This document shows, one piece after another, positions 8,914 to 58,507 of a stretch of DNA of 64,000 nucleotides. The stretch's first letter is position 1. Each line of letters opens with the position of its first letter. The DNA is from Thermoanaerobaculia bacterium (GTDB lineage Bacteria; Acidobacteriota; Thermoanaerobaculia; Gp7-AA8). The stretch covers positions 590,903 to 654,902 of the forward strand of contig OY970380.1 in the NCBI GenBank assembly GCA_963719365.1, written 5' to 3'. The notes under the pieces were generated by a model that did no database searches, was not told the origin of the DNA, and saw only the letters and a list, made by a program, of their open reading frames with translations. A program made the position numbers and the translations under genes.

Positions 8914-9070
8914 GCAGGGGGTGGGGCGTGGCGTGTGGGAACGCTGATCGATTGGCGAACGACCGAATGTTGAATGTTCGGTGTTGAATGTTCGGTGTTG
9001 AATGGAGCCGCGCCGCGCTTCTTCGCTGCGGGTTTCATCTCCCACACCCACACCCAACTCCCCACACCCC
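8914..9070. repeat. G-rich/C-rich long inverted repeat (G-arm, ~95-nt loop with 14-mer tandem repeats GTTGAATGTTCGGT, C-arm)
   Basis: G-arm GCAGGGGGTGGGGCGTGGCGTGTGGGA at 8914-8940. C-arm TCTCCCACACCCACACCCAACTCCCCACACCCC at 9038-9070. The C-arm shares the 15-mer ACACCCAACTCCCCA with the element at 16.7 kb. Confidence 0.6.
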
Positions 9071-9150
9071 AATAGTCAACCTCTTGACGATCGTCCATTC
9101 CGAAACTAAGATGACGTCATTCGAGTGAAACAGATTACGGGAGGGTGTGA

Positions 9151-9540
9151 GTGATGCGACAGCGGCTGGAGATCAAGCGCTCGAATTCCAATCACGACAA
9201 TCGTCTTCTGTCGGCGATTCGCAACTACCTGCCGGGTGCCTGGATCGCTCCGAAGAACAACGAGCTGATCACGCTCTACCGCCTCCGCTACAAGATGGCG
9301 CTTGATGAGCGGAAGTACGACGCCGCGCTCATCTTCCTGAACAAGATCCTCAAGCTCGATCCGCTGAACGCCGAGGCCAAGCTGTGCAAGGGCGAGATCT
9401 ACCATCGTTGCCTGCAGGACTACGCGAAAGCGATCGAGCAGTACAACAAAGTGCTGCGGATCAGCGGCGGACGAGACAGCGAGAGCATCCAGTTGCGCGC
9501 CCGCGCAGGCATGGCCGAGATCATGGAACTGCTGTCGTAG
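9151..9540 (+). CDS. Small TPR-like repeat protein (hypothetical)
   Basis: 129 aa. TPR-like helices (YDAALIFLNKILKLDPLNAEAKLCKGEIYHRCLQDYAKAIEQYNKVL). GGGAGGG ribosome-binding site upstream of the ATG. Confidence 0.55.
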   Translation: MMRQRLEIKRSNSNHDNRLLSAIRNYLPGAWIAPKNNELITLYRLRYKMALDERKYDAALIFLNKILKLDPLNAEAKLCKGEIYHRCLQDYAKAIEQYNKVLRISGGRDSESIQLRARAGMAEIMELLS

Positions 9541-9590
9541 CTGGCTTCCATCTCGAGACCAGCACCTACACTCTTGTCGGTGCGATTCTT

Positions 9591-9924
9591 CCAGTGCCGC
9601 TGACGCGGCACAAATCGCCGCAATCGATCTTCCAGGCGTGCTCGTAAAAAGCGCTCGCACGCCTGGCTACCTTCGGATGCCGCTGACGCGGCGCGAGCGC
9701 CATAGGCTCGCCGCCTTGGCCACGCCGTACCAGGTGTCCTCGAAGTCCTTACTCAGTGTTTCTCTAGTGCTTGCAGCCGGAGCCTTGGTGCGAAGTGGAC
9801 CCAACCCCGCACATCCGGGCTCGCCGCGTCAGCGGCCCCAGAGGGTAGCGAGGGGTGCGAGCGCTTTTTGCGAGCACCCCTCGAAACGCGTGATCTCGGA
9901 TTTGTGCCGCGTCAGCGGCACTGG
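9591..9924. repeat. Inverted duplication of a ~105-nt structured unit (two copies in opposite orientation, ~125-nt spacer)
   Basis: Unit L 9591-9697 and unit R 9822-9924 (reverse orientation). Each unit has two 14-mer hairpin modules GCCGCTGACGCGGC, one flanked by GT/AC to give the 7-bp-stem hairpin GTGCCGC-TGAC-GCGGCAC. Between them lies a conserved 25-nt core GTGCTCG[T/C]AAAAAGCGCTCGCAC that is 24/25 identical, while the 21-nt linkers are unrelated. Confidence 0.6.
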
Positions 9925-10034
9925 ACCTTCCGCGAAAATGCAGATTAGCGTTCGACGCTGGACGATTTCATACAGAGTACTTCTTATGATAAAGTACTCG
10001 GCATGTCAGCAGCGCGCCTACCGATCCCGCTCGA

Positions 10035-11033
10035 TCACGAAGTCGAGCGCCATTTCCAGCGCTTCACGCGCGGGGAGCCGGCGAACGGCTCGAGCGCGGC
10101 ACGGGCGCGGTTCGCGTAGTCGCGGGCGATGGCGCGCGTTTCGTCGAGCGTCTCGTACTTGCGCACCAGCGCCAGCATCTCGGCAGGATCGATCCCTTCG
10201 AACGACTTCATCGCGGCGATGAGAGCGATCTTCTCGCGCTCGGCTGGGGTGGCCCGAGGCATCGCCAGGATCAGGGGGAGGGTGAGCTTGCCTTCCTTGA
10301 GATCGGAGAGCGCGGGCTTGCCAAGGACTTCCGTGCTCGAGGTGAAATCGAGGATGTCGTCGATGAGCTGGAAACAGATGCCGAGGTTGACGCCGTACGA
10401 AAAGAGCGACTGGCCGATCGCTTCCGGCTGATCGACGAGATACGCAGGAATGCGGCAGCAGGCGCCGAACAGCAGCGCCGTCTTTCGCTCCACGATCGTG
10501 AAGTAATCGTCGACAGAAACATCCGCGCGTCCGTTGTGCTCGAGCGCCAGGATTTCTCCCTCGATCATTTTGATCGTCGTCGTCGAGAGAAGCCGCAGGA
10601 TATCGAGATTGCCATCGACCAGCGCCATCGACATCGAATGCATGAAGATGTAGTCGCCAACCAGGACCGTGAGGTTGTTGCCCCATCGATAGTTGATCGA
10701 AGTCCGCCCGCGCCGCACCTCGGCCTCGTCGATGATGTCGTCGTGAACGAGCGTGGCGTTATGAATGAATTCGACTACCGCGCCATACGTGACATCGCGG
10801 AGGCCTTCGTACCGCAGCATTTTCGCGACTAGCAGGAGAAGCGCGGGACGTAAGCGCTTGCCGCCGCCGGCGAGAATGTGCTCGCCAACGTCGTGAAGGG
10901 TCTTGATGCCCGACTCGAAGTTGCGCTTCAACTCGAGCTCGACGAGCTGGAGCTTCGGCGCGACGAGATCGAGGAGCCGGTCAGCGGGCGAGAACTGATC
11001 GACCGGCGCGCTGGTGATGGGAGGCGACGTCAC
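10035..11033 (-). CDS. ispB: Polyprenyl diphosphate synthase (octaprenyl/solanesyl-type)
   Basis: Two aspartate-rich motifs: LVHDDIIDEAEVRRGR and GICFQLIDDILDF. 332 aa. Confidence 0.85.
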   Translation of the reverse strand: MTSPPITSAPVDQFSPADRLLDLVAPKLQLVELELKRNFESGIKTLHDVGEHILAGGGKRLRPALLLLVAKMLRYEGLRDVTYGAVVEFIHNATLVHDDIIDEAEVRRGRTSINYRWGNNLTVLVGDYIFMHSMSMALVDGNLDILRLLSTTTIKMIEGEILALEHNGRADVSVDDYFTIVERKTALLFGACCRIPAYLVDQPEAIGQSLFSYGVNLGICFQLIDDILDFTSSTEVLGKPALSDLKEGKLTLPLILAMPRATPAEREKIALIAAMKSFEGIDPAEMLALVRKYETLDETRAIARDYANRARAALEPFAGSPRVKRWKWRSTS

Positions 11034-11066
11034 GGGGGACAGAATAAACGAATTGGTCAGGAAGCC

Positions 11067-11561
11067 TCAACCGCGATAGTTGGTGAACTGCAGCGGGATT
11101 CCGAAATCCTTTCCCTTCACGAGGGCGATGGCTTTCTGCAGATCATCTTTCGTGCGCCCGGTGACGCGGACCTGATCGCTCTGAATCGAAGCCTGAACCT
11201 TGATCTTGGCCTCTTTGATCGCTTTCACGATCGCCTTCGCTTTCTCGATCTCGATCCCCTGAACGATCTTCGCGCGCTGCCGCACGGTGCCGCCCATTGC
11301 TTGCTCGAGCACGCCGTAATCCATTGCTTTGAGCGCCACGCCGCGCTTCACCAGTTTCGATTCGAGGATGTCCTTGACGCTGCGCAGCTTTCCCTCGTCG
11401 TCGCTGGCGAGCACGATCTCTTCGGCGGCAAGCTCGATCGAGCTCTTGCTCCCTTTGAAATCGAATCGCTGGGCCAGCTCTTTCTGCGCCTGCTGCACCG
11501 CGTTCGACACTTCCTGCATTTCAGTTTTGGAAACGACATCGAATGAGAATTCCTGAGCCAC
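11067..11561 (-). CDS. yajQ: YajQ family nucleotide-binding protein (UPF0234)
   Basis: 164 aa. The full-length match MAQEFSFDVVSKTEMQEV...QFTNYRG is characteristic of YajQ. Confidence 0.85.
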   Translation of the reverse strand: MAQEFSFDVVSKTEMQEVSNAVQQAQKELAQRFDFKGSKSSIELAAEEIVLASDDEGKLRSVKDILESKLVKRGVALKAMDYGVLEQAMGGTVRQRAKIVQGIEIEKAKAIVKAIKEAKIKVQASIQSDQVRVTGRTKDDLQKAIALVKGKDFGIPLQFTNYRG

Positions 11562-11590
11562 GGGGCCTCCTGGTGGGGGAGTGACACAAC

Positions 11591-12193: not shown

Positions 12194-12292
12194 GGTTGAG
12201 TGGGTAGTTGCTAAGTTGCTTGGTTGCTGGGTTGCTCGGGTCATTCAGTTCACCTTGCAACTCAGCAACCAAGCAACTCCAGCAACCGCGAA

Positions 12293-15068: not shown

Positions 15069-16616
15069 ATGACCGATATCCTGACGCTTCCCGTAGAGCC
15101 GAAGTCTGTGGTGTCGAATCCGTCGCCCGATGAGCTGCGGCGCTACACGGAAGAGATGCCGAACTGCCGCAAGACCGAGTTCGGCAACGTGAATGTGGCC
15201 ACGCGCGTGGTGTCGCGATCGAAGGGCTCGACGTTCGTCGCCACCGACACGCCGGAGAATCATTCCGATCAGACGATCAGCCTCGCGGAGTACGAGCGCA
15301 TCGCGAAGATCCAGAACGACTACATCCGAACGCGCGAGATGCTGGTGATCGATGGGTTCATCGGCAACGATCCGCAGTTTCGCGTGCCGGCGCGGCTGAT
15401 CATCGAGAAGGCCAACGCGAACATCGCCGCGATGCAGCAACATCTCTACTATCCCGCCACGCCGGCGGAGCTCGATAGCTTCGAGCCTGCCGTCACGGTG
15501 ATCTACACGCCGAATCTGAAGGCCGAGGGGTATCCGGAAGAGCGGCTCATCGCGGTCGACCTCGATCACTACATCACCCGCGTCTTCAACTCCGACTACT
15601 TCGGCGAGTCGAAGAAGGGCGGGCTGCGGATGTGGAACAAGATCGTCTACGAGCGCGGCGGACTGGCGCTTCACGCGGGGTGCAAAGTCATTCCGGTCGA
15701 TGGCGAGAACAAAGTCGCGCTCATCGTCGGATTGTCGGGCACTGGCAAGACGACCACGACGTTCACGAAGCAGAACAATTCGCAGCCGGTGCAGGATGAC
15801 TTCTGCGCGTTGATGCCGGGCGGCAAGGTTTACGCGACCGAAAACGGCTGCTTCGCGAAGACGTTCGGCCTCAATCCGAAAGACGAGCCGACGATCTTTC
15901 ATGCGTGTGCGTCTCCGCATGCGTACCTCGAGAATGTGTCGCAGAATGACAGTGGCAAGATCGATTACTTCGATACGTCGTACACGCCAAACGGCCGCGC
16001 GGTAATCCGCATGGGCGATGTTGCGGGCGCGTTCGACGCGCGCGAAGTGAACAAGGTCGATTTCCTGCTAATCCTCAATCGCAACGAGAACATCATTCCC
16101 GCGGTGGTCAAACTGGAAGGTCCGCTGGCCGCTGCGTACTTCATGCTCGGCGAGACGAAGGGGACGAGTGCGGGTGGCGCCGCCGAGGCGGGAAAATCGC
16201 TGCGTGTTCCGGGAACGAATCCATTTTTTCCGCTGCTGCACGCGTTCCAGGGCAACCGGATGATGGAACTGATGAACGAGAGTCCGATGGACGTCTATCT
16301 CATGAACACCGGTCGCATCGGCGGCGACGAGAAAGACGAGCGCTCGAAGAAGGTGAAGATTCAGCACTCATCGGCGGTCGTGAAAGCGATCGCCGAGGGA
16401 ACGATCACGTGGCAGAAGGACCCGGATTTCGGGTACCTCGTTGCCTCGGAAGTGCCGGGCATCGACGATGCCGATTACCTTCAGCCGAAGTCGATGTACG
16501 AACGGCAGGGGAGGCTCGATGAGTACAACCAGCTCGTCGAAAAGTACAACACGGACCGGCGAGCGTATCTGCGTAAGTGGAAGGGTTTGAACGAAGAGAT
16601 CGTGAACGCGATTTAG
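15069..16616 (+). CDS. pckA: Phosphoenolpyruvate carboxykinase (ATP)
   Basis: Kinase-1a motif GLSGTGKTTTTF. PEPCK-ATP body. Start at MTDILTL at 15069. Confidence 0.9.
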   Translation: MTDILTLPVEPKSVVSNPSPDELRRYTEEMPNCRKTEFGNVNVATRVVSRSKGSTFVATDTPENHSDQTISLAEYERIAKIQNDYIRTREMLVIDGFIGNDPQFRVPARLIIEKANANIAAMQQHLYYPATPAELDSFEPAVTVIYTPNLKAEGYPEERLIAVDLDHYITRVFNSDYFGESKKGGLRMWNKIVYERGGLALHAGCKVIPVDGENKVALIVGLSGTGKTTTTFTKQNNSQPVQDDFCALMPGGKVYATENGCFAKTFGLNPKDEPTIFHACASPHAYLENVSQNDSGKIDYFDTSYTPNGRAVIRMGDVAGAFDAREVNKVDFLLILNRNENIIPAVVKLEGPLAAAYFMLGETKGTSAGGAAEAGKSLRVPGTNPFFPLLHAFQGNRMMELMNESPMDVYLMNTGRIGGDEKDERSKKVKIQHSSAVVKAIAEGTITWQKDPDFGYLVASEVPGIDDADYLQPKSMYERQGRLDEYNQLVEKYNTDRRAYLRKWKGLNEEIVNAI

Positions 16617-16620
16617 TGTT

Positions 16621-16737
16621 TTGGGAGTGGGGAGTTGGGCGTGGGGTGTGGGAGCGGAGGCAGTTTGCTTCCGACAACGGCCCCGGGCGCAATTCAACCC
16701 CACCCCCTACACCCAACTCCCCACCGCCCAACGCTCG
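16621..16737. repeat. G-rich/C-rich long inverted repeat immediately 3-prime of pckA (terminator-like)
   Basis: G-arm TTGGGAGTGGGGAGTTGGGCGTGGGGTGTGGGAGCG. C-arm CAACCCCACCCCCTACACCCAACTCCCCACCGCCC. The core GTGGGGAGTTGGG pairs with its complement. Confidence 0.6.
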
Positions 16738-16794: not shown

Positions 16795-17355
16795 ATGCGA
16801 CTCGGGGCGCTTGTTCCGGCAATGATCCTGGTCAGTGCGTTCGCGGCAACGTCGCGGGCGGATCACTCTCCGGCTGTCCAGTCGAATCCGCCCGCCACGA
16901 GTCCTGATCTCGAGCATCGCGCCAACGCCGGAAAGTTGCGCATCCGGGCACCGCGCGGATTGCGACGTTCGGTGTCCGATCTCGATTCGCGCGTCCTGGC
17001 TTCGCTGCTGGCGCTTCAGTCGCGCGGCGATTTCGATTTTGAAGTGCGCGCCGGCGACGCTTCCTGTGATGGTAAAACGTGCGCCGTGTCGCTGGCTGTG
17101 AAGCTGCCGGAAGCGCTGCCGCCGATGCGTCTGGCAATCGCGGTGGCCAACGCGAAGGGCGAGTTGTCCGAGGTGAAACACGCTGATTGCATGACCTCGA
17201 ACTGCACGGTCCACCTCGTGCTCGAGCGCGGCCGGAACACGATTTCCGTCGGCGCCACAGACGGTCTGCTTCAGACAACCGGTTTCGTGCTGACGACGGT
17301 CGTGGCCTCGCCGAACCTCGAAGCGAGCACGCGCGGACGCAGCGAGTGGTTCTGA
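16795..17355 (+). CDS. Hypothetical secreted protein
   Basis: 186 aa. Signal peptide MRLGALVPAMILVSAFAATSRA. No recognised domain. Confidence 0.5.
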   Translation: MRLGALVPAMILVSAFAATSRADHSPAVQSNPPATSPDLEHRANAGKLRIRAPRGLRRSVSDLDSRVLASLLALQSRGDFDFEVRAGDASCDGKTCAVSLAVKLPEALPPMRLAIAVANAKGELSEVKHADCMTSNCTVHLVLERGRNTISVGATDGLLQTTGFVLTTVVASPNLEASTRGRSEWF

Positions 17356-17358: not shown

Positions 17359-17489
17359 AAGTGGTTAGTAGACAAGTGGATTAGTCGATTAGACGACCCA
17401 CCCGGCTAACAAGGCTATTCTGGCCATCCTGATCTCTGGTCTCTAATCCTTCTCTAATCCACTGATCACTAGTCCACTAATCCACTGCC
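17359..17489. repeat. Purine-arm/pyrimidine-arm inverted repeat (GATTAG/CTAATC tandem motif)
   Basis: AGTGGATTAGTCGATTAG at 17376-17393. Reverse-complementary CTAATCCACT copies at 17448-17486. Fills the gap between the convergent hypothetical gene and lptFG. Confidence 0.55.
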
Positions 17490-17490
17490 T

Positions 17491-22430: not shown

Positions 22431-22492
22431 GAGGATAGCACGCGAAGACGCGAAGGCACGAAGAAAAACAATTAGAACCATTCGCGTCTTCG
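22431..22492 (-). terminator. GC-rich hairpin 20 nt downstream of the GNAT gene stop (no U-tract)
   Basis: GCGAAGACGCGAAGG...CCATTCGCGTCTTCGC forms a 13-bp stem around a 22-nt AT-rich loop. It could instead belong to the hom/metB leader. Confidence 0.3.
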
Positions 22493-22512
22493 CGGCTTCG
22501 CGTGAAACGCTT

Positions 22513-24902: not shown

Positions 24903-24920
24903 TGAACGGGCTCGATTGTA

Positions 24921-25039
24921 GCGGACGGGAGTCGCTTATCGGGAGTCGGGAGTCGGAGAAATTCAAAGTTCATCGAAATCCGGTCAGGACGTTGAACTTC
25001 GTTCTCCGACCCCCGACTCCCGACAACCGACTCCCCCAC
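24921..25039. repeat. G-rich/C-rich long inverted repeat (GGGAGTC tandem motif)
   Basis: G-arm GGGAGTCGCTTATCGGGAGTCGGGAGTCGGAGAA. C-arm TTCTCCGACCCCCGACTCCCGACAACCGACTCCC, near-perfectly complementary. ~40-nt loop. Lies between the DUF151 gene stop and the parA start. Confidence 0.65.
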
Positions 25040-29495: not shown

Positions 29496-29500
29496 TGGTG

Positions 29501-29585
29501 CTCTTAGCTCTGAGCTGTTAGCTCTTAGGCCCGCCCGCCCTGCTGGTGATTCCCAAGAGCTAACAGCTAAGAGCTAAGAGCTACC
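29501..29585. repeat. Inverted repeat occupying the ptsH-ptsI intergenic spacer (AGCTCTTAG/CTAAGAGCT tandem motif)
   Basis: CTCTTAGCTCTGAGCTGTTAGCTCTTAGG versus CCCAAGAGCTAACAGCTAAGAGCTAAGAGCTACC. A ~29-bp imperfect stem between two co-transcribed genes. Confidence 0.6.
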
Positions 29586-34689: not shown

Positions 34690-35377
34690 ATGAATTCAAT
34701 GCTGACTCGCGGCTCAGGGGAAAGGGGGGGAAATTTGGAGGCGGAGTGTAGCAGAAGGAAAAGAGCTGCGGTGGGGGATTATGATGAAGGTTCTGTACGG
34801 TGCGTCTGTAAACTATGGCCGCGTCACGCAGGGAGCGAGAGGGGAATAGTGCGGGCTGCTGGAAGCGGCGAAAGGGGACGTCCACGATCATCACACGACA
34901 CGGGCATCCGTGCGCCCGTTGCTGATCACTCTGGAAGGCCAGCAGAAGGCGCCTCCCGCGAAAGGGACCGGGCGCGGTCTGTGGGGAAATCGAGTACGCG
35001 ATCGATACGCGCTCTTCGTGACGAATGGAACCGATAGACATTGCCGGCTAGCGCCCGATGCGCTGCCGTTGACTCGGCGCCGATCATCTACCTCCTCGAG
35101 GACATCCCGTTCCGGCGTGCTTCGAATGATCTTCGAAGCCCACGCCGCGGCCAGGTCCGTCGCGTCACGACGATACGATTGCCGAGCTGACGGTCCGCGG
35201 GGCGAGGAAGTGCTGGCGGAGATACGCAGCTTCTCGAATCTTGGCAGGTGGTCGACATGGACGCCATCGCCGAAGCGCGGCGCGGATGCGCGGTTTGTTC
35301 GTCTCAAGCCGCCGACGGGTCAGGTCGCAAGCGCACTGGACAACGAGACGGGAAGAGAGAGGGAGGGGGGGTGCGAA

Positions 35378-35471
35378 AGGGGTCAGGTCGAAACCGAAAC
35401 CGACGACAGCTTGAATCGAGAGGAATGTTCGTAGCGAGGCGTCGTCAGTTTCGGTTTCGACCTGACCCCTT
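35378..35471. mobile_element. REPIN-like hairpin (REP doublet), left flank of RAYT gene
   Basis: AAGGGGTCAGGTCGAAACCGAAACCGACGAC, a 30-nt loop, then GTCGTCAGTTTCGGTTTCGACCTGACCCCTT. A near-identical copy in opposite orientation lies at 36532-36625. Confidence 0.75.
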
Positions 35472-35541
35472 TCGCGCTATACTTTGCTTCCCACGCGAGA
35501 CCGGTCCTCGGTCTTATTCGATTGCTCTTCTCCGAAGCGCT

Positions 35542-36558
35542 GTGCCTCGTCCTCTACGACTCGAGTTTCCGGGCGCCCTCTGGCATGTCACCAACCGTGG
35601 TGTAGAACGGCGATCGATCTACGCAGATGATCACGATCGCCTTCACTTTCTTCACCTATTGGAAAAGGTGATCGGTGCCTACCGCTGGCAAGTGCTCGCA
35701 TATGTGTTGATGTCGAATCATTACCATCTGTTCTTCCGAACGCCGGACACGAACCTATCGCGAGGGATGAAGGATCTGGATGGTGACTACGCTTCGTTCT
35801 TCAACGCACGTCACCGGCGTGCAGGACATCTGTTTCAGGGACGGTTCAAGAGTCACCTTGTCGATGGCGAGACCTATCTCCTCGAGGTCGCTCGTTACAT
35901 CGTTCTCAATCCGGTTCGCGCACGCATGGTGGAGACGCCTGGGGAATGGCGATGGAGCAGTTATCGCGCGACAGGCGGTCTTGCCGCGGTTCCCCGCTGG
36001 CTCGACCCTGGACCGATCCTCGACGTCTTCCATGCCGATGACTGGAACGTGGCCATGCATGGATATCGCGAGTTCGTGGCCGCGGCGATCGGGCACGATG
36101 CCTCGCCTTGGGAGGGGTTGGTTGCCGGGACGTTTCTTGGAGGGAAGGAGTTTCTGCAGCGAATGGAAATCGAGGTGAAGAGGTTGAGGCAGGAGCCCGA
36201 TGTGATGAAATCTCCGCGCGCGCAGGAACTGCGGGAGCTCTCCGTCGCTTCGACCTCCGATCTCGGACCGCTGACGATCGAGTCGGTGAGACAAGCAATT
36301 GAGTCAATGAGGATCACTGACTGTTGGCCACCCCCTCCTGGCTCGGATGCGCGCCTGCTCTTCGCGTTGCTCTCGGCCCGGCACACTCAATCGTCTCGCG
36401 CAGAGATTGGCCGTCTTCTGGGCATCACCGCACCCGGCGCGCTTCGCGTGATCCGGTCGGGCGAAACGCGGGAAACGAGAGATCCCGAATTTGCGAAGCT
36501 ACTGCTCGACGTTAAGGAATTGCTGCCGCGGAAGGGGTCAGGTCGAAACCGAAACTGA
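35542..36558 (+). CDS. REP-associated tyrosine transposase (RAYT; IS200/IS605 Y1 HuH family, COG1943) with C-terminal HTH extension
   Basis: HuH motif NHYHLF. Catalytic Tyr region [14 protein letters not shown]. Canonical N-terminus (M)[19 protein letters not shown], implying a GTG start at 35542 (ATG alternatives lie upstream). The 3-prime codons run into the right REPIN. Confidence 0.8.
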
Positions 36559-36625
36559 CGACACTTCGCTACGAATGTTCCGCTCGATACAGGCGTCGTC
36601 AGTTTCGGTTTCGACCTGACCCCTT
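36532..36625. mobile_element. REPIN-like hairpin, right flank of RAYT gene
   Basis: Same arms as 35378-35471, with an inverted loop sequence. Contains the RAYT stop codon. Confidence 0.75.
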
Positions 36626-36644
36626 CGAGGGAAGGGAGGGGGCG

Positions 36645-38036
36645 TCACGCCGCGAGAATCGGATCGTGCCACGAGCCGCCGGGAAGGATCCGTTGCGCTT
36701 CCTCCGGTCCCCAGGTGCCTGGCTCGTATTCGTGGACGGGGATGTCGTGGCCGATGATCGGGTCCACGACGCGCCATTCGGCTTCGACCATGTCTTCGCG
36801 GGCGAAGAGCGTGGCGTCGCCTTTCATGGCGTCGCCGAGCAGCCGTTCGTACGGTCCGAGCTGACCGACCACGTTGCTGACGGCCAGGAGCTCGACGTTC
36901 TGCCCAGTCATCCCCTCCCCCGGTATTTTCGAGCGCACGCCGAGGGCGATGGCGACATCGGGGCCGAGGCGGAATCGGACGTAGTTGGCGTTGTCGGGAG
37001 TGAGCGTGTCGCCGCGAAGATCGATCAGCGGCGGTTGCTCGAGCTCGACGAGCACCTCGGTGCAAGTCGACCGGCAGCGATTTCCCGCGCGGATGTAGAA
37101 GGGAACGCCGGCCCAACGCCAGAGTCGCGATGTCGAGCCGCAACGCCGCGAAGGTCTCGACTTTGAATCGGGAGCGACGCCTGTCTCGTCGCGGTAGCCG
37201 CGAAACTGGCCGAGGACGACGTGGCTCGGGTCGATCGGCCGGATGGCATCGAGAACCTGGCGCGCTCGTCGCGAATCGCTTCGGCGTCCCGCGCTGCGGC
37301 GCCTCCATCGCCAGGTAGCTGACGACCTGGAGCAGATGGTTCTGCACGACGTCGCGGATGGCGCCCGTCTCGTCGTAGAACGCGCCGCGGCCCTGAATCC
37401 CGAAATTCTCGGCCATCGTGATCTGCACGCTCTCACGAAGTTGCGGTTCCAGACCGGCTCGAGAAACGAGTTGGCGAAACGGAAGTAGAGGAGGTTCTGT
37501 ACCGGCTCCTTGCCGAGGAAATGGTCGATGCGGAAGATGGCCGTCTCGTCGAAGACCGTGAGCAGTGCTGGGTTGAGCTCGAGTGCTGACTCCAGGTCGC
37601 GACCGAACGGCTTCTCGACGACGACGCGCGCGCCTTTGGCGCAGCCGGAGCGCGCCGAGCTGCGTCGGCCACGGTCGCGAACATGCTCGAGCGGAATGGC
37701 CAGGTAGTGCAGAGGGCTGCTCGGCGCTCCCGAGCGCCTGCCGGAGACGATCGAAGGTGGCAGCGTCGCGATAATCGCCGTCGACGTAGTGCAGCAGCGA
37801 GACGAGCTTCGCGAAGGCCGCTTCGATCGACGCCGCCGCCGTGTTCAGCGAGGCTGTTCCTCCCCCGCTCGCGCAACTGGTCGAGCGTCCAGCCGGCCTT
37901 GGCCACGCCGATCACCGGCACGTTCAGGGTGCCCGCGCTTGATCATCGCCTGCAGCGCAGGAAAGATCATCTTGTAGGCGAGATCGCCGGTGGCCCCAAA
38001 AAAGACGAGCGCATCGGATTGCGGGGCTGCGGTCAT
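36645..38036 (-). pseudogene. zwf: Glucose-6-phosphate dehydrogenase, disrupted by at least 3 frameshifts
   Basis: N-terminus MTAAPQSDALVFFGATGDLAYKMIFPAL. Middle segment [39 protein letters not shown]-terminus ...[14 protein letters not shown]...GPEEA. The pieces fall in three different frames that abut one another. Confidence 0.75.
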
Positions 38037-38139
38037 GAGGAGTGCTCCGGAAGATTTCGCATCGGGCGCGAAGGATAGCGCTATCACGAAAAACGGCCAC
38101 CTCGCGGGTGGCCGTTTTTGGTCGAACTGTTGTTTTCGT

Positions 38140-40233
38140 TTACCAGATCCGGACGCGATCCTCGGGCGCGATGTAGTTCGGTCGCCCGGCTTCACGTCGA
38201 ACGCGGCGTACCAGGCGTCGATGTTGCGCACGGCGCGTTGACGCGGATCTGTCCGGGCGAGTGCGGGTCGGTGACCAGCTGCTGGCGCAGCGCGTCGTCG
38301 CGGATCTTGCCGCGCCAGACCTGCGCCCAGCCCAGGAAGAAGCGCTGGTCGCCGGTCAGGCCGTCGATCACCGGCGCCGGCTTGCCGTTCAGCGAGAGCT
38401 GGTAGGCGTCGAGCGCCAGCAGTCAGGCCGCCGAGGTCGCCGATGTTCTCGCCCATGGTCAGCTCGCCGTTGATGTGCGCGCCCGGGCAGCGGGCTCGAT
38501 AGGCGTCGTACTGCGCGCCGAGCTTGGCGGCCTGCGCCTCGAACTTGCGCCGCGTCCTCGGGCGTCCACCAGTCGCGCAGCATGCCGTCGCCGTCGGACT
38601 TGCGGCCCTGGTCGTCGAAGCCGTGGCCGATCTCGTGGCCGATCACGCCGCCGATGCCGCCGTAGTTGACCGCCGGGTCGGCGTTCGGATCGAAGAACGG
38701 CGGCTGCAGGATCGCGGCCGGGAAGACGATCTCGTTCTTGCATCGGGTTGTAGTAGGCGTTGACGGTCTGCGGCGTCATGCCCCACTCGGTCTCGGTCGA
38801 CCGGCTTGCCGAGCCGGCTGCGACGGTAGTGCCCAGTCGAAGCTGCGCGGCGCGCTCGACGTTGCCGAAGAGGTCGCCGCTGATCGACCTCGAGGCCGCG
38901 AATAGTCGCGCCACTTGTCGGGATAGCCGATCTTGACGGTCGAAGCGTGCGAGCTTCTTCGAGCGCCTCGCGCCTTGGTCGCCGGCGCTCATCCAGTCCA
39001 GCGTTCTCGATGCGGCGCGTCCATGCGCCGTGCGCAGGTTGCCGACCAGGGCGTCCATCTTCGCCTTGGACTCCGGCGGGAAGTAGCGCGCGACGTAGAC
39101 TCGGCCGAGCGCCTCGCCGATCGCGCCGTCGACGACGCCGACGCCGCGCTTCCAGCGCTCGCGCTGCTCCGGCTGGCCGTGCAGGGTCTTGCGCGGAACT
39201 CGAAGCTGCGCGTCGACGAAGCGCTTGGACAGGAGGGCGCGGCGTCGTCGGCGACGTGGAAGGCCTGCCAGGCCTTCAGGGTCTCGACCGGCGTCTCGGC
39301 GAAGATCGCGGCGATCTTCGGGAAGGCGCGTGTTCTGCGCGACGATCACCCGCTCGGCGCCTGCCGAGTCCGGCGGCCCCAGGTAGCGCGTTCCAGTCGA
39401 AGCCCGGGGCGCTGCTTCTCGAGCTCGGCGACGGTCATCGGGTTGTAGGTCTTGTCGCGGTCGCGGCTCTCGGCCGGGTCCAGTGCGCCTCGGCGATCTT
39501 GGTCTCGAGCGCGACCACGATCGGCCGCGCTCTTCTCGGGCTCGGCCCAGCCGATGAGTCCGAGCATGTCGGCGACGTAGGCCTGGTAGCGCTCTTTCTG
39601 CGGCTTGAATTGGCCTCCAGGTAGAAGTCGCGGTCGGGCAGGCCGAGGCCGGCCTGCGAGATGTAGAGCGTGTACTTGTCGGGATTCTTGGCGTCGTCGC
39701 TGACACCCGCGCCAAAGAAGGCGCTGCCGAATCCGCGTCGGAGCTGCCCATGATGCGGGCGATGTCATCGCGCGTCTGCGCCTTCTTGATCTTGTCGAGA
39801 TGGGCTGGATCGGCTTGGCGTCGAGCTTCTCCGCGCGGCCTCATCGAAGTACGGCGGTAGACGGCGGCGACTTTCGCCTCGTCGAAGCCGGGCTTCAAGG
39901 TCTTGTCTGGCGGCCCAGCTCGAGCAGCGTATGAACGCGCGCCTCGGACAGATCGCCGAGGACTGCGAAGGTGCCGTATCCGGTCTTGTCGGCCGGGATC
40001 TGCGTCGTCGCTGCCCACTTGCCGTTAACGTACTTGAAGAAATCGTCGCCCGGTTTCACCGAACGGTCCATGCCGTCAAGGTCAACGCCCCAGGTTCCGT
40101 ACCGCTGCGCAGCGATAGGCGCCGCGGGCGCGGCAGGTTTCGCGTCTTCGGCAAACGCGGTAAAAGCAATGGTGGATGCGAACAGACTAAGTGCGATCAC
40201 ACTGATCGTGCGATCAAGACGTCTCATGCTCAT
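38140..40233 (-). pseudogene. M13 family zinc metalloendopeptidase (PepO/neprilysin-like), multiple frameshifts
   Basis: Signal peptide plus N-terminal [58 protein letters not shown] zinc motif. [10 protein letters not shown] and C-terminal NIDAWYAAFDVKPGD...YIAPEDRVRIW. These are scattered over all three minus-strand frames. Confidence 0.7.
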
Positions 40234-44772: not shown

Positions 44773-45680
44773 TCATCGCTGGACCGCCGGTTGCGCAAAC
44801 GTGAGCGTGAGGTCCCGGGTACTGACGCGGACGGGTACGCCGATCGGCAACAGGAGGTTGTCTCCCTGATGGCCGAACGGCAGATCGCGTATGACCGGAA
44901 TGTTGCTGGAGGCGAAAAATTCGTGCAGCAGCGCCTCGATCTCAGCGTCGCTCCCGCACCCTTTCAGCTTCCCGATGACCACAGCTCGGATTTTTTTCAG
45001 TCTACCGGACAGCCGTAAGTGGGTCAACATACGATCGATGCGATAGACCGGCTCGTCGACATCTTCGAAGAACCAGATTCCATCTTCGATCCAGAAGTCG
45101 TACGGCGTACCGGTCAGCGCGGTCGTCAGCGACAGGCAGCCACCAAACAAGACGCCATCGGCTTCGCCATCGATGACGACTCGGGCCCGCTCGAAACGAT
45201 GAACAAGAGGCGCATCGCCGGCGAGCATCGACCAGAACCACTCCTCGATCGCCGGCGACAGCCCCGGTGCCCAATCGGAGTTGAGCATCGGTTAATGAAA
45301 CGAGGCGATGCCACACTTGACGGCGACGGCCTGGTGAAGCGCGGTGATGTCGCTGAAGCCACGATTGGACGGGGGTTGGCGGGGATGGCGTCGTAGTCAA
45401 CGCCGTCGAGGATGCGCATGGCGCCGTAGCCGCCGCGAGCGAAGAAGAAGGCATCGAAGTCGTCAGACCTCAAGTAACGGTTCAACTTGCAAGGCGTCCG
45501 CATCGTCGCCGGCGAGATAACCGCGGTGGCGATGATCGATGTTCCAGCGAGCGTAACGCGCAGTCCTCGCTGCTCGAGCGTTCGCGCCGCCGCTTCGATG
45601 CGCGGTAGTTCGGAAGGGGATGACATGGCGAGGACGACGACGCTGCCATTTCGCGGCAGCGCGCGGGGGCGTATGAGCAC
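44773..45680 (-). pseudogene. LD-carboxypeptidase (peptidase S66, LdcA-like), 2 frameshifts
   Basis: N-terminus SVVVLAMSSPS...RGYLAGDDADALQ...ARGGYGAMRIL. C-terminus WFWSML...HEFF in a different frame. Confidence 0.7.
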
Positions 45681-45774: not shown

Positions 45775-45965
45775 AGGGGGGCGGGTGTGGGGTGTCGGGA
45801 GTGGGGGGTGGGAACCGCGCAGCGTTAGTCGCGTGGTGCGGAGTGTGAGCTAGGTGGCTTGAAGTGCGAGCCGGGGCGTCCTTTGCGCGTTGGATGGCCC
45901 GGCAGTACGATGCGTGTCGGCGTGTTTTTACTCCCACCCCCGACACCCCACACCCTACCCCCCGG
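45775..45965. repeat. G-rich/C-rich long inverted repeat, upstream-side bracket of rnpB
   Basis: G-arm GGGGGCGGGTGTGGGGTGTCGGGAGTGGGGGGTGGG. C-arm CTCCCACCCCCGACACCCCACACCCTACCCCCC. ~115-nt loop. Confidence 0.65.
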
Positions 45966-45975: not shown

Positions 45976-46362
<387 letters not shown>

Positions 46363-46394: not shown

Positions 46395-46607
46395 CCGGGG
46401 TGTGGGGGTGGGGATTGGGGTGTCGGAGAAAAACCGAACCCGCTCCCCGGTTCGCGACGAGGTTGTGACCAATCACCTGATCGCGGGCGTGAGAAGCTTG
46501 CGCTGCGACGATCATATAGAGGGAAAACCATCGACCAATGAATCGTGATCCGAGACTCGCAGAAGGTCTTGGCTCCCACCCCCGACCCCCTACACCCCAC
46601 ACCCTCG
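46395..46607. repeat. G-rich/C-rich long inverted repeat, downstream-side bracket of rnpB
   Basis: G-arm CCGGGGTGTGGGGGTGGGGATTGGGGTGTCGGAG. C-arm GGCTCCCACCCCCGACCCCCTACACCCCACACCC. ~140-nt loop. Confidence 0.65.
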
Positions 46608-46674
46608 TCAACAAATACATCCCCTTAAATTGTTGCTGTTTCAGTCGCTTACAATCAATGTCGGCGCGCCGACA

Positions 46675-49888: not shown

Positions 49889-51706
49889 TCAGGCGTGCAG
49901 CTCGTCGTACAGCGTCTGGCCCACCTTGCGTCCGAGCACATTCATCAGGTCCTGCGCGGAAGCTTGTTTGACGCCGGAGACGCTGCCGAAGCGCTCGATC
50001 AGGAGCCGCCGGCGCTTTTCACCGATGCCGGGCATGTCGTCGAGCGCGCTGTGCAGACCTCTTCGAGCGGCGCCGGCGATGGGAGGAGACGGAGAAGCGA
50101 TGCGTCTCGTCGCGCACCATTTGCAGCAGTTGGAGCGCGGGATCGCGCGTTCCAGGCGGATCGGCTCCTCGCGATCGGGAACATAGATCTCCTCCTCGCG
50201 CTTCGCCAGGCCGGCGATCGGGATCTCTTCGATGCCGAGTTTGTTCAGCGCCGCCAGCGCAGCGTTGAGCTGTCCGCGGCCGCCGTCGATGAGGATCATG
50301 TCCGGCAGTGACTTGTTCTCGTCCATAAGCCGCCGATACCTGCGATCGACTGCCTCGGCCATCGAACGAAAGTCGTCCGCTCCTTCGACCGTCTTGATGT
50401 TGAACACCCGGTACTGCTTCTTGTCGAACTTGCCACGGTCGAGAACGACCATGCCGGCGACGGAATCAGTTCCCTGGATATTCGAGATGTCGAACGATTC
50501 GATGCGATTCATCTCTCTGTCGTAGCCCAGCACCTGCCCAAGTTTCTGTGCAGCGATCTGCAGCCGGTCCTGCGTCGATTTGCGGAAGCGCGACTCATGC
50601 GACAGACGCGCGTTGCGGTTGACGAGTTCCATCCGATCGACGCCTCTCCCGCGCTGCGGAACGCGCACTCCACCTTGCGGCCGGCCTGTTCGGTGAGCCA
50701 CGCGGTCAGCAGGTCGCACTCCTCGACCTCGAACGGGATCAACACCTCGGGCGGAATGAACAGATTGTCCTGGTAGTAGCGCTGCAGGACCTCGCCGAGG
50801 AAGTACGTCGGCTGGTAGTCGTCGACCTTCTCCCAGAACAGCTCGCGCCGGTCGACGACGTTGCCGTCGCGGATGACGAAGAGCTGCACGGCGACGTCGC
50901 TCCCCTCTTCGTACAAACCCCAGACGTCGGCATCCTCATCATCCGCCGAGGACACCTGCTGCTCGGCCTGGATGCGCTCGACGGTACGAACGAGATCGCG
51001 GTAGTACGTCGCCATTTCGAAGTTCTCGCTCTCAGCGGCGCTGATACATCCGCCGCGTCAGCCGGTCCTGCAGTTCCTTCGTCTTGCCGCCGAGAAAGAG
51101 GACGACGTCGTCGACCATGTCGCGATAGAGGTCCGGCGTCGTCAGGCCGACAACGCACGGCCCGAGGCATTGGTGCATGTCGGAGTAGAGGCAGGGCCGC
51201 GGAAATGCGTTCTTGCCGAGCGTGATTTCGAGATCGCAGCTCCGCAGCTTGAACTGGTCGGCGACGAGCTTCAGCAACCGCCGCGCGGTACCGGCGAAGA
51301 ACGGGCCGTAAAACAGATCGCCCTTCTTCCGATCGAGCCGCCGCGTGAAGACGACCCGCGGGTAATCCTCGGACATCGTGACCTTGATGTACGGGTAACT
51401 CTTGTCATCGCGAAGCAGGATGTTGTAGCGCGGCTGGTTCGATTTGATGAGGTTGTTCTCGAGGAGGATGGCCTCGAGCTCGTTGTTCGTCGTCACGAAA
51501 TCGATGGTGTCGATCTCGTTGATTAGCGACATGGTCTTGCTGTCGCGCGCCCCGCGTCCGACCAGATACGAGCCGACGCGGCTCTTCAGATTCCTCGCCT
51601 TCCCAACGTAGATGACCTCACCCTCGGCATTCTTGTGCATGTAGACGCCGGGGCGGTCGGGCAGCTCTTTCAGCCGGGTTTTGAGCCGTTCGAAGCGGTC
51701 GGACAT
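49889..51706 (-). pseudogene. uvrC: Excinuclease ABC subunit C, disrupted by at least 3 frameshifts
   Basis: GIY-YIG N-terminus PGVYMHKNAEGEVIYVGKARNLKSRVGSY. UvrBC-interaction region AAESENFEMATYY. C-terminal RNase H-like plus HhH region (IPIAGLAKREEEIY...GIGEKRRRLLIERFGS). The total span of 1818 nt equals an intact uvrC. Confidence 0.8.
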
Positions 51707-51963
51707 GAGCAGAAGTGGAACAAGTTACGGGTGCGATTGTCATCCCGACGGAGGGTCATTCTGCTGACTGGTCAAGTAGTTGACGAGTCAGCGGGGCGGA
51801 GACGAGCCAGAGGAGTGCGGACGTCTCGTCCGCGGCGGCGAGGCGTCCTCGCCTCGGCGTTGGGGAGCTGGAAGGCTGATGTCACCCTGCCGGATCATCG
51901 GGCGACCCCCCATCACCGATGGGCGAGGACGCCCATCGGCCGCAGGCGAGACGCCTGCACTCC

Positions 51964-52589
51964 TTAAGTCAGGACGCGAGTCTGCCCAGAAATCCCCCGC
52001 TGCTTCGCGAAATCGAGCGTCCACTCGTGGCCGCCGTCGAAGACGCAGGTCTCGACCGTGGTCACGGCGCAGGAACCGAAGGTCGTTCTGCAGCTTTGCC
52101 TCGGTGTACCACTCCTCGCGCGTCCCCCGTCCGATCAGGACCGGAGGCAACGTCGGACTCGAGGAACGACCTCCGGCGGAATGTCGCCGCCAAGGGCGAT
52201 GAGTCCTGTCGCGGCCGAGCGGGCGGCGGCGCGATACGCCATGGCCACGCCTTGCGAGAATCCGAGGAACACGAGTTGCTGCGGTTGCGGAAACTGCTCG
52301 ACGACGCCGGACGTAGGCAAGGTTGTCATCGATGGCCAGTTCCCGATCTGGCTCGTCATCCACGACGCCACGATCGCTCCCGTCCGATGCATATAAAAAG
52401 GATGGAGCGCCTGCACAGCGACGGTCGTCCACGTCTCGATCCCGGGATCTGCTGCAACTCGGCGTTCTGCACCTCGGCGTTTTCGCCGTAACCATGAAAG
52501 CCGATCAGCAGATGTTCCGCCGGACCGCGCCGAGCGATGTAGCGGCCATGAACGGTTGCGGGAATCGTGTGGACTTCAAGGTCGGTCAT
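51964..52589 (-). pseudogene. Phospholipase/carboxylesterase family alpha/beta hydrolase, at least 3 frameshifts
   Basis: N-terminus LLIGFHGYGENAE. Nucleophile elbow LVFLGFSQGVAMAY. C-terminus VFDGGHEWTLDF. Each piece is in a different frame. Confidence 0.6.
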
Positions 52590-55693: not shown

Positions 55694-55865
55694 GGGAGAC
55701 AAGGGATTAGAGACAAGAGATCAGAGCAACCTTGCGAGTTCTGAGTTCTCCGATTGCTGCTCGTAATAGTACGTTGGGAAAATGAGTGACCCTGCGCATT
55801 TCGACGGAGATCCGAGCATTCAGGTCACTGATCCGTGGTCTCTGGTGTCTCTGATCTCTGCTTTC
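55694..55865. repeat. Purine-arm/pyrimidine-arm long inverted repeat (AGAGATCAGAG motif)
   Basis: GGGAGACAAGGGATTAGAGACAAGAGATCAGAGCAACC at 55694-55731 versus CTGATCCGTGGTCTCTGGTGTCTCTGATCTCTGC at 55826-55865. ~95-nt loop. Lies between two minus-strand genes. Confidence 0.55.
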
Positions 55866-57688: not shown

Positions 57689-57730
57689 GCGAGGTCTAAC
57701 AGTGTCGTTCCTCGGCGCTATTTCGTTTTG

Positions 57731-57767
57731 TTGGGGTGTCGCGGTTCGGGGGTCGGGCGTCGGAGAG
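57731..57767. repeat. G-rich arm of a split inverted repeat enclosing the vapBC module
   Basis: TTGGGGTGTCGCGGTTCGGGGGTCGGGCGTCGGAGAG. Its reverse-complementary partner lies ~700 bp away at 58474-58507. Confidence 0.5.
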
Positions 57768-57805
57768 CTCGTCTCCGATTCCTCACATTCGCGAACGCGC
57801 ATTGC

Positions 57806-58224
57806 TCACGGTAGCCTCTCGAAACCGGCTTGCGTGAAGTGTTGATCGAACGCAAGCGCCGTCGTGATGGCAAGCCTGCCCATCAGCACGAAGGAAATAC
57901 AGTCGGTGAGTGAGTAGGTCTTGTCTTGATGGGTCTGAAGGTACTCCCATGCCAATTGGAATAGATCGTCGTCGACGTGCACGAGATTGACGGATGGCTC
58001 TGAATGAGGCGGTTGCCGACTTCGACTGCCTTGTCGTGAAGGCCTCGGCTGTTGAGGAACGTGACGACCTCGTCAAAGACGTAGGAGGTTGTTACGAGCT
58101 CTGGAAGGCGGACGCGAAAGGTGCGCCAATGGGCAATCGCGGATTGGTGGTGTTGGTCGTTTGCCAGCTCAAGCGCCAAGAGATAGCCGGTGTCCAGAAA
58201 TACGGCTTCATGCCTCGCTGACAT
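57806..58224 (-). pseudogene. vapC: PIN-domain toxin VapC with one frameshift near 57980
   Basis: N-terminus [26 protein letters not shown]...[15 protein letters not shown]-terminus in another frame [58 protein letters not shown]. Confidence 0.65.
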
Positions 58225-58417
58225 ACTGGTCGTGACGGACGGAAGCGTCTGAGACACCGCTTGTGACTGGAGCCTCGCCGAGTTGCAGGATGGGGTCCAG
58301 TTCATTAACTGGTACGACGAGAAGGCAGTGGTCACCCCTACGAATCTCGACTTCCGTGATGCCGGGAAGAAGGTCTTTCGGGATGAGAACGCCAGCGTCC
58401 GTGACAGGTGCCTTCAT
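58208..58417 (-). CDS. vapB: AbrB/MazE/SpoVT-type antitoxin VapB
   Basis: 69 aa. [28 protein letters not shown] swapped-hairpin motif. 17-nt overlap with vapC. Confidence 0.55.
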
Positions 58418-58473
58418 AGCGTTGATTCTAGCAGCACCTTCCTGGGGCGCCTAACGACCCTCACAACGATTCG

Positions 58474-58507
58474 TCTCCGCCCCCCGACTCCCGACGAGCG
58501 ACTCCCT
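58474..58507. repeat. C-rich arm partner of the 57731 G-rich arm
   Basis: TCTCCGCCCCCCGACTCCCGACGAGCGACTCCCTC is 28/32 identical to the C-arm at 25001-25039. Overlaps the histidine kinase stop codon. Confidence 0.5.

Follow-up and report, generated by a model that had tools for sequence, protein, structure and literature searches.

What kind of element recurs at six intergenic sites in a 64-kb stretch of DNA from an uncultured Thermoanaerobaculia bacterium (Acidobacteriota; base composition ~62% G+C), each time as a G-rich array followed by its C-rich counterpart? We refer to the whole stretch as the window and to the six sites as loci 1 to 6. A preceding, sequence-only reading had described them as long hairpins, forming a class particular to this lineage, whose arms are conserved and whose interiors vary; it characterized them by G-richness and G-quadruplex (G4) potential and considered that they might serve as mobile elements or as terminators and insulators. 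Comparison with related genomes supports the class, its conserved arms and its variable interiors; the remaining attributes fare differently, as discussed below. We put at roughly one half the probability that loci 1 to 6 represent the G-rich portion of a class of extragenic palindromes which is specific to the lineage and formed from mirrored short tandem arrays, and give the same weight to the proposition that this class consists of REP/REPIN-like palindromic minisatellites which are kept at the DNA level and possibly reused as transcript 3' barriers.

Hairpins with mirrored tandem arms as a lineage-specific class

Relatives of the window were gathered in two sets, the members of which are designated by L numbers where they must be told apart. 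The first comprises 80 syntenic loci retrieved by the MiaB-like methylthiotransferase encoded beside locus 3, all of them from uncultured Acidobacteriota and the majority labelled Thermoanaerobaculia (top match 95% identity), while the second comprises 80 further soil-metagenome loci retrieved by a UvrC fragment. An automated scan of the window and these 160 loci, 2.29 Mb in total, returned 152 hairpins with tandem-repeat arms. The period of the repeated unit is 7 nt in 111 of these hairpins, 8 nt in 31 and 9 nt in nine, and the unit sequences themselves number in the dozens. Stems have a median length of 28 nt (range 16-82), and the spacers between the arms a median of 25.5 nt with an upper extreme of 700 nt. 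The modal arm contains four units, arms free of G-runs included; the detection threshold disfavours arms of two units or fewer, rendering the lower tail of the unit-number distribution uncertain.

The class is unevenly distributed among the genomes sampled. Densities of 7.5-9.4 hairpins per 100 kb were observed in the window, in loci with a MiaB that shares 67% identity or more with that of the window and in the UvrC-retrieved loci, as opposed to 0.2 per 100 kb in more distant loci of the same bacterial class (MiaB ~50% identity). A pronounced polarity accompanies the build: the 5' arm holds more G than C in 130 hairpins versus 20 and is purine-rich in 111 versus 34, and this is true of both strands because the element is a palindrome. 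G-runs, by comparison, are scarce. Arms with four or more of them occur in four of the 152 hairpins and arms with one or none in 135, so G-richness and the capacity to form G-quadruplexes, formerly considered the defining trait, do not delimit the class. G4 potential is instead a by-product of a few G-rich unit types. A scan of the relatives based on composition only, seeking G-rich segments followed by C-rich ones, was dropped as too noisy in GC-rich coding DNA.

How the arms relate to one another is visible in their sequence variants. Where a unit deviates from the consensus of its array, the deviation is matched at the paired position of the opposite arm in 257 cases versus 117, which argues that the two arms are copies of each other and not two independently slipping arrays. 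The same unit is shared by 10.5% of hairpin pairs within a locus and by 3.5% of pairs between loci, and three dispersed families, with units TTCACGCGRAG, GAATGTT and GTGGATTA, are represented by hairpins at non-orthologous loci of different genomes. Mismatches within the stems are skewed towards neither the outer nor the inner ends of the arms, and pairing stops at the called arm limits; growth of the arms from the palindrome centre was rejected on both counts. Target-site duplications were absent around the hairpins, where flanking direct repeats were no longer than in random controls and no positional motif was detected. A classical cut-and-paste element of the MITE (miniature inverted-repeat transposable element) type is thus not indicated. 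A run of four or more T was present in 10 of 304 hairpin flanks, with a mean T fraction of 0.22 versus 0.17 in whole sequences.

Within the window, all six inverted repeats were found where they had been placed (Table 1), using a gapless scan for hairpins and, for arm complementarity at each locus, a gapped alignment of the G-arm against the reverse complement of the C-arm. At a score of at least 14 the window contains 11 hairpins, compared to an expectation of 0.37 from dinucleotide-preserving shuffles of the same sequence, and at a score of at least 17 it contains nine, compared to 0.03. When folded as RNA, the six loci are predicted to give long hairpins, with energies between -67 and -125 kcal/mol and z-scores, relative to shuffles, between -3.3 and -14. 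All six have the G-rich array first, in convergent orientation, and Tandem Repeats Finder reports a period of 7 for the arms of loci 2 to 5. Judged by sequence the arms form three sub-pairs, namely loci 1 and 2, loci 3 and 6, and loci 4 and 5. The C-arms at 25001 and 58474, said to agree at 28 of 32 positions, are identical at 30 of 33 by our alignment, and loci 3 and 6 have their unit variants in one and the same order along the arms, suggesting that arms have been copied from locus to locus. Likewise, the sequence that loci 1 and 2 were noticed to share is a 15-mer, ACACCCAACTCCCCA, found only at 9049 and 16708.

Other elements of the initial description required qualification. All six copies are indeed intergenic, no U-tract follows the arms, and the loops are non-homologous, with that of locus 6 containing two open reading frames (ORFs), one VapB-like and one PIN-like and frameshifted. 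Position at gene 3' ends, asserted for most copies, is true of five loci, whereas locus 1 lies between divergent 5' ends. The assertion that G-arms contain four or more G-runs is valid for loci 1, 2, 4 and 5, each of which has a canonical G4 motif (defined as four or more G3+ runs), and invalid for loci 3 and 6, whose arms are built of (GGGAGTC)n. Seven of the eight canonical G4 motifs in the window lie in arms of the former four loci.

The window also contains seven or more long hairpins in intergenic DNA that match the six loci in size and layout and had been overlooked. Their arms are not G-rich; in each, one arm is a short tandem array and the opposite arm its mirror image. Several decayed or half forms are present too. 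At least seven unrelated units are encountered within 64 kb, and one of them, GTGGATTA, also builds a hairpin in L165, at a locus unrelated to that of the window. As hairpins without G-rich arms have an identical build, we take the six G/C loci for a single variety within a wider class.

Turnover at orthologous junctions and within spacers

The same gene junction carries, from one relative to the next, a hairpin with an unrelated unit or no hairpin at all. This is most easily appreciated between ptsH and ptsI. The gap between these genes measures 3-25 nt in many relatives and ~27 nt, with a small hairpin of 7-8 bp, in four; in other relatives it measures 80-120 nt and is wholly filled by a long hairpin, the unit of which depends on the lineage (GCTCTTA, GTCGGCT, AACGATG, CGGTGCC, AGGCCCT, GAGTCCT or AGGCCTT). 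Presence and absence alternate, and units are swapped, in the same manner between the bifunctional-nuclease gene and parA (locus 3) and at the 3' end of PEPCK (locus 2). The RNase P RNA gene is syntenic in 54 metagenome loci, and a tandem-armed hairpin begins 3-33 nt beyond its 3' end in at least 24 of the 47 relatives with downstream sequence, with at least 12 unrelated units among them. Upstream of RNase P, close relatives provide a decay series that leads from a full (ACGCGGAG)n hairpin to the 3' array only and on to a 10-nt remnant. A further instance concerns a 186-aa ORF (16795-17355) which has no family match, lies between PEPCK and the convergent lptF/G gene and has hairpins on both sides. 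It is missing in most relatives, where PEPCK directly faces lptF/G, and in L001 the hairpin after it is built of (ACGCGGAG)n, unrelated to the (GTGGATTA)n of the window.

Spacers change independently of the arms that enclose them. Among five orthologues of locus 3 (those named being L001, L004, L037 and L050) the 35 arm pairs are nearly unchanged and the spacers are unalignable. The junction of locus 6 holds a G-rich hairpin with a spacer of ~100 nt in L100 and, in L104, degenerate G/C outer arms which enclose an inner (CACAGAG)n hairpin. A MITE-like insertion interrupts the spacers of (GAATGTT)n hairpins in three loci. Spacers are thus the site of replacement and capture, which explains the unrelated loops of 40 nt to 0.7 kb that the sequence-only reading recorded.

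Several observations on individual spacers may be added. The MITE-like insertion is a palindrome of ~170 nt with GTCATTCCGAGC...GGATGAC ends, hosted by L084 (7964-8226), L087 (984-1245) and L089 (7965-8226); related ends were seen in L006, L027 and L039. At 8968-9004, inside the spacer of locus 1, is a tandem (TGTTGAATGTTCGG)2.6 array, and the region 8960-9010 can be described as a (GAATGTT)n array with a single arm, after which come GAATGG and the start of a spacer. A full (GAATGTT)n hairpin occupies the divergent glycosyltransferase|hydrolase junction in ~10 metagenome loci (L082 8123-8227 and its orthologues), and the resemblance of the half array to it makes locus 1 look nested or chimeric. 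As to the cassette in the spacer of locus 6, the VapB-like and PIN-like identities were read by eye from the translations, and neither ORF has a Pfam or NCBIfam match. A hexamer resembling a -10 element, TAGAAT, precedes the VapB-like start codon by ~8 nt.

Table 1. Hairpins and associated features of the 64-kb window, with their immediate surroundings
Feature	Position	Strand	Structure or evidence	Surroundings
Locus 1	8914..9070		G-arm ~8914-8943, C-arm ~9039-9070, 95-nt spacer; complementarity 19/23, weakest of the six	between divergent coaD (8413-8901, minus) and TPR gene (9151-9540, plus)
Locus 2	16620..16731		arms 16620-16652 and 16699-16731, units GGGAGTG/GGGGTGT, 46-nt spacer; complementarity 28/33; G4 motif on both strands	begins 4 nt past PEPCK stop codon (16614-16616)
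Locus 3	24927..25035		arms 24927-24960 and 25002-25035, (GGGAGTC)n, 41-nt spacer; complementarity 31/34	occupies gap from bifunctional-nuclease gene stop (25042) to parA start (24902)
Locus 4	45776..45962		arms 45776-45805 and 45933-45962, 127-nt spacer; complementarity 27/30	starts ~13 nt beyond 3' end of RNase P RNA, minus strand
Locus 5	46397..46604		arms ~46397-46430 and ~46571-46604, spacer ~140 nt; complementarity 27/33	between NYN-domain gene stop (46675) and conserved GGAATG...CTGTTAC block immediately upstream of RNase P RNA
Locus 6, G-rich arm	57731..57767		29/37 complementary to partner arm	upstream of S55-peptidase-like gene
Locus 6, C-rich arm	58474..58507			adjoins stop codon of histidine kinase gene (58507-59808, minus)
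Cassette in locus 6 spacer	57806..58417	minus	VapB-like ORF 58208-58417 and PIN-like ORF 57806-58335, frameshift-split	
RNase P RNA (bacterial class A)	45976..46357	minus	241.5 bits, E = 2.4e-77	loci 4 and 5 on either side
Class member	12205..12288		(GTTGCTN)n arms	fills gap from DUF6982 gene stop (12293) to lolA start (12193)
Class member	17362..17490		degenerate (GTGGATTA)n arms	fills gap between convergent stops 17355 and 17491
Class member	22439..22504		(ACGCGAAG)3 arms; dispersed TTCACGCGRAG family	8 nt past GNAT gene stop
Class member	29500..29581		(GCTCTTA)4 arms	fills ptsH-ptsI gap, 7 nt after ptsH stop and 4 nt before ptsI start
RAYT-like Y1 (IS200-type) transposase gene	35530..36558	plus	PF01797, 7.6e-11	
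REPIN-like hairpin	35373..35475		GGGGTCAGGTC head and (GAAACC)2	left flank of RAYT gene
REPIN-like hairpin, second copy	36531..36626		inverted	right flank of RAYT gene
Third RAYT-linked hairpin	59809..59895		GGGTCAGGTC head and (TCTAAAG)2	between sigma-54 activator gene stop (59883) and histidine kinase start

Repeats of other kinds are also found here. A near-perfect palindrome of 336 bp (9590-9925) with a centre of 128 nt lies between convergent genes. Its arms are nested, one pair being complementary at 100% over 27 nt and the other at 86% over 64 nt, and since they are not tandem repeats the palindrome belongs to another type of element. A family of GC-rich palindromic repeats, of the GGCGAGACGCC / CGGGCGTCC type, is present in the window (51811-51964), in L001 (5859-6409), where three tandem copies of ~216 nt occur, and in L007 (18904-19352). 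No tRNA genes were found in the window.

Maintenance, transcription and mobility

In the reading we prefer, each element is built of about four 7-9-nt units in tandem, a non-palindromic spacer of ~10-45 nt and the mirror-image array, with a unit sequence that differs between loci and between lineages. We infer that such elements are maintained mainly at the DNA level: arrays would lengthen and shorten through replication slippage, one arm would be copied from the other through template switching or palindrome correction, and whole arms would occasionally be copied from locus to locus. The spacer, being situated at the palindrome tip, would be fragile or permissive, a hotspot of breakage and repair at which DNA could be swapped or captured. 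Palindromes settle in any intergenic gap, irrespective of gene orientation. Those that are transcribed would form hairpins of 22-80 bp directly behind stop codons and RNase P RNA and, by analogy with REP/BIME elements, would probably impede read-through or 3' exonucleases independently of a U-tract. The occupancy of ~50% after RNase P RNA and after PEPCK constitutes the best support for this last role.

Four points weigh against such an account. Firstly, a DNA process that is purely neutral would not lead one to expect the strand-symmetric polarity (130 vs 20), which hints at a constraint at the level of transcription or RNA. Secondly, certain junctions are hot relative to the average of ~8%, with ~50% occupancy on the 3' side of RNase P and of PEPCK and ~20% at ptsH|ptsI, a pattern that could derive from selection for a 3'-end function. 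Thirdly, the putative transfer of arms between loci has left neither a target-site duplication nor a conserved flank motif. Lastly, the junction-type statistics considered below derive from crude gene calls, based on G+C content at third codon positions (GC3), and from loci which are partly orthologous, so that counts are non-independent.

Some of these points would be accommodated if the hairpins were dedicated, bidirectional intrinsic terminators without a U-tract, or 3'-end protectors, in which the long hairpin is selected for its function in RNA. The G-rich 5' arm and C-rich 3' arm, along with the repetition of units, might then let the hairpin invade the RNA-DNA hybrid repeatedly and release the transcript, perhaps explaining the G-first polarity seen on both strands. 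We regard this explanation, the main rival, as unlikely, although several observations speak for it. Hairpins start a median of 10 nt past a stop codon, and a stop codon lies within 40 nt of 98 of the 152, versus 6.7% on random placement. Five of the six loci follow a gene 3' end, and the hairpins that succeed RNase P RNA in at least 24 of 47 relatives do so with unrelated units. Canonical terminators, a hairpin followed by a T-tract, show no excess over shuffles in the window (21 vs 17.9, 13 vs 17.4 and 13 vs 15.7). Over the 3' arm, the RNA:DNA hybrid is predicted to be a little less stable (-11.65 vs -12.45 kcal/mol, or 0.8 kcal/mol per 9-mer; 98 of 152 hairpins), a weak result.

Proximity to stop codons is nonetheless a circular mark of a terminator, and we rejected it as such: an element of ~90 nt in a tiny gap must abut the flanking codons, and its position is therefore not evidence of function. 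Many hairpins end 1-12 nt before the next start codon within apparent operons, ptsH-ptsI being one example, which leaves no room for a promoter. Nor do the hairpins favour a junction type. Occupancy per junction is 5.9% for convergent, 7.8% for co-directional and 9.9% for divergent gene pairs, and divergent junctions do not differ from the remainder (9.9% vs 7.6%, p = 0.37), with the reservation about gene calls and orthology made above. The first GC3-based gene caller misassigned several junctions (e.g. ptsH|ptsI in L044) and was refined, and the key divergent cases were checked against Pfam: a glycosyltransferase (GT2)|hydrolase junction in ~10 loci, PadR|UvrC, AMP-ligase|PLP-enzyme and locus 1. 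Moreover, the hairpin is frequently missing at the same junction in relatives, and arms of up to 82 nt reach well past what termination needs. Sense-strand G:U pairs are not in excess of A:C mismatches (17 vs 25 in a first set, 51 vs 59 in a larger one), though with stems of 28 bp the test has too little power to speak against a role in RNA. The terminator or insulator role previously suggested hence finds no backing at the level of the class, given its occupancy of divergent junctions, but does find it locally, on the 3' side of RNase P RNA.

Hairpin-only, 'I-shaped' terminators devoid of a U-tract have been proposed for high-GC Actinobacteria, and are contested. The present hairpins resemble them as stable structures which follow stop codons, lack a U-tract and belong to a GC-rich genome. 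The stems of I-shaped terminators, however, are much shorter and have no tandem units, and such terminators are not known from divergent junctions. The class is also unlike canonical intrinsic terminators, which have a short GC-rich stem, a loop of 3-8 nt and a U-tract, in its stems of 16-82 nt and its median spacer of 25.5 nt. A literature search on terminators of Acidobacteria yielded nothing specific.

Two conserved motifs near hairpins are of note with regard to transcription. A TACAAT/TAGAAT hexamer is conserved ~12 nt before the parA start in all relatives (window 24903-24920; gaps in L001-L050), which suggests that the parA transcript may be leaderless or have a very short leader, its putative promoter abutting the hairpin of locus 3. 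Directly after the NYN-domain gene (window 46655-46672) an 18-bp palindrome, ATGTCGGCGCGCCGACAT, is conserved; it recurs in distant Thermoanaerobaculia (L051, L070, L075, L077, L136 and L141) as well as upstream of RNase P in L081-L089, and may be a protein-binding site or a small terminator.

A bolder version of DNA-level maintenance would have the hairpins form a self-renewing structural class of DNA with no dedicated transposase, in which a mutational engine writes mirrored arrays of 7-9 nt, rewrites their units and captures spacer DNA. The engine would work through slippage, through arms being copied by fold-back and through breaks that are repaired at the tip of the palindrome. The strand-symmetric, G-first polarity would come from transcription, and the cell would reuse the products as U-tract-independent transcript barriers. 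We offer this as speculation, with odds clearly against it.

The lineage also possesses a genuine REPIN system, and it must be asked whether the class as a whole belongs to it. The window encodes a RAYT-like protein whose match to NF047646 (REP-associated tyrosine transposase, RAYT) scores 77.7 bits, below the cut-off of 80, and whose close homologues are called RayT by their sources. A 100-nt hairpin featuring a GGGGTCAGGTC head and doubled GAAACC stands on either side of its gene, in inverted copies, and the interval 35373-36626 is a REPIN-RAYT arrangement (cf. PMC3116915). Homologous RAYT genes in five related contigs (L161-L165) likewise have flanking hairpins, in which the same head is combined with other doubled units of 6-7 nt; one of these contigs shares its metagenome-assembled genome with L001, the closest relative. 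Arms near-identical to those of the hairpin at 59809 flank the RAYT gene in L163 and L165, and this hairpin, together with one at 17191 of L163, represents copies located away from RAYT genes. Two direct copies of the RAYT-linked hairpin in L001 flank an apparent small toxin-antitoxin cassette.

If the class consisted of REPINs in the strict sense, non-autonomous and mobilized by RAYT, with each unit type constituting its own REPIN population, the gene and its inverted hairpins of the same architecture, their homologues in five contigs, the distant copies and the dispersal of several other unit families over loci and genomes would all be expected. Against this, the RAYT-linked family has hallmarks of its own: its head, GGGGTCAG(G/A)(T/C)C, is conserved, and its inner units number exactly two. 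The head is absent from the G/C arms and from most other members of the class, which are therefore not placed in that family. Furthermore, the dozens of unit types per clade far exceed the RAYT families seen, sharing of units within a locus is modest, and none of the RAYT genes seen (that of the window and those of L161-L165) is flanked by G/C or heptamer arrays. We thus hold a strict REPIN identity to be improbable, yet the architecture shared with RAYT-linked hairpins in the same lineage is a strong hint at the kind of object under study.

The notion that these are G-quadruplex or i-motif regulatory elements, in which a G4 of the G-arm competes with the hairpin to control transcription or translation, is favoured by the concentration of canonical G4 motifs in loci 1, 2, 4 and 5 and by the in vitro G4 formation of similar heptamer repeats in Xanthomonas and Nostoc (PMC4692102). 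It is very improbable nonetheless. Loci 3 and 6 have no canonical G4 motif, the 135 hairpins with at most one G-run have the same position, size, polarity and four-unit mode, orthologous junctions exchange G-rich for non-G-rich units, and the duplex with the C-arm has a predicted energy of -67 to -125 kcal/mol. Finally, that we are faced with chance low-complexity matches or assembly artefacts is a negligible prospect: several window genes are frameshift-split, suggesting assembly indel errors, but hairpins in the window are far in excess of those in shuffles, and hairpins of the same kind occur at orthologous positions in more than 100 independent assemblies from different projects. The genes concerned encode UvrC (49889-51706), LD-carboxypeptidase (44773-45680) and glucose-6-phosphate dehydrogenase (36645-38456), each split into adjacent ORFs in different frames, and probably reflect such errors or are pseudogenes.

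Known repeats and the value of the clade

The closest precedent is the paired GGGAATC heptamers of Xanthomonas. These (GGGAATC)n arrays are intergenic, form inverted repeats as 70-75 convergent pairs per genome, and place their G-rich strand on the coding strand just after stop codons; the modal array has four units, length and sequence vary between close relatives at one junction, and the arrays form G4 in vitro, with no function found (Rehm et al. 2015, PLoS One, PMC4692102). Nostoc has a counterpart in GGGGA(C/T)T heptamer repeats, which also form G4 in vitro (PMC4692102). The hairpins described here share with both the intergenic tandem array of heptamers (111 of 152) and the mode of about four units, and with the Xanthomonas pairs the convergent arrangement in which the G-rich array comes first (six of six loci; 130 vs 20 in the class), the position behind stop codons and the variation among close relatives at a given junction. 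A literature search for GGGAATC itself gave primer matches only.

The differences are nevertheless substantial. One G-rich consensus dominates each Xanthomonas genome, whereas dozens of unrelated and mostly G-poor units are encountered here; units of 8 and 9 nt are also present, and the host phylum is Acidobacteriota. The four-unit mode, credited to G4 formation in Xanthomonas, extends here to G-poor arms. A G-tract in each unit, such that four units make a G4 motif as in the Xanthomonas and Nostoc repeats, characterizes loci 1, 2, 4 and 5 but not loci 3 and 6, and class-wide four of 152 hairpins have four or more G-runs. Unlike in Xanthomonas, no under-representation between divergent genes is apparent (9.9% vs 7.6%, p = 0.37), as far as crude gene calls can tell.

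REP and REPIN elements with their RAYT transposases (Bertels and Rainey 2011, PMC3116915; PMC3337134; PMC5581495) offer a second comparison. Like REPINs, the present elements are extragenic and consist of two inverted arms and a spacer, folding as a hairpin of ~70-110 nt; they form dispersed families, persist at orthologous positions across species and coexist, in the window and its relatives, with a hairpin-flanked RAYT gene. They depart from REPINs in that their arms are tandem arrays of variable length, not one conserved REP sequence, and mostly lack the RAYT-linked head. As regards a near-identical, high-copy population, a REPIN trait, the 64 kb of genome at hand contain arm sub-pairs with up to 30 of 33 positions identical, and most hairpins differ.

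Enterobacterial REP and BIME elements act as mRNA 3' stabilizers and weak terminators, with short stems and one conserved sequence per family. As intercistronic or 3'-end palindromes without a U-tract, inside operons, they are similar to the hairpins of this lineage and may, by analogy, be a plausible model for those which are transcribed. Intergenic direct repeats of heptamers are documented in cyanobacteria (STRR) and, as TAACTGA, in Beggiatoaceae (MacGregor 2015, PMC4679880). A 7-nt periodicity, intergenic location near gene ends and lineage-specific abundance are common to these and to the present class.

Many bacteria have an excess of heptamer repeats between their genes, and the paired form of these in Xanthomonas has been read as a G-quadruplex matter (PMC4692102). 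The clade examined here supplies a natural control, in that the same architecture, four-unit mode, polarity and gene-adjacent position are found with dozens of units which do not form G4. Since the build recurs with units incapable of forming a G-quadruplex, its explanation lies in the palindromic tandem build and not in G-tracts. The clade also displays turnover at fixed junctions, decay, nesting and cassette capture alongside a true RAYT-REPIN system. It is accordingly suited to asking how extragenic palindromes arise and persist and why the unit measures 7 nt, as well as whether palindromes serve as transcript barriers in a GC-rich lineage whose canonical terminators, in the window, do not exceed expectation. 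On a practical level, such hairpins break short-read assemblies and can mislead predictors of G-quadruplexes and of terminators. Should these palindromes prove to be self-renewing, they would open a way to the mechanism behind the surplus of heptamer repeats that has long been noted in the genomes of bacteria.

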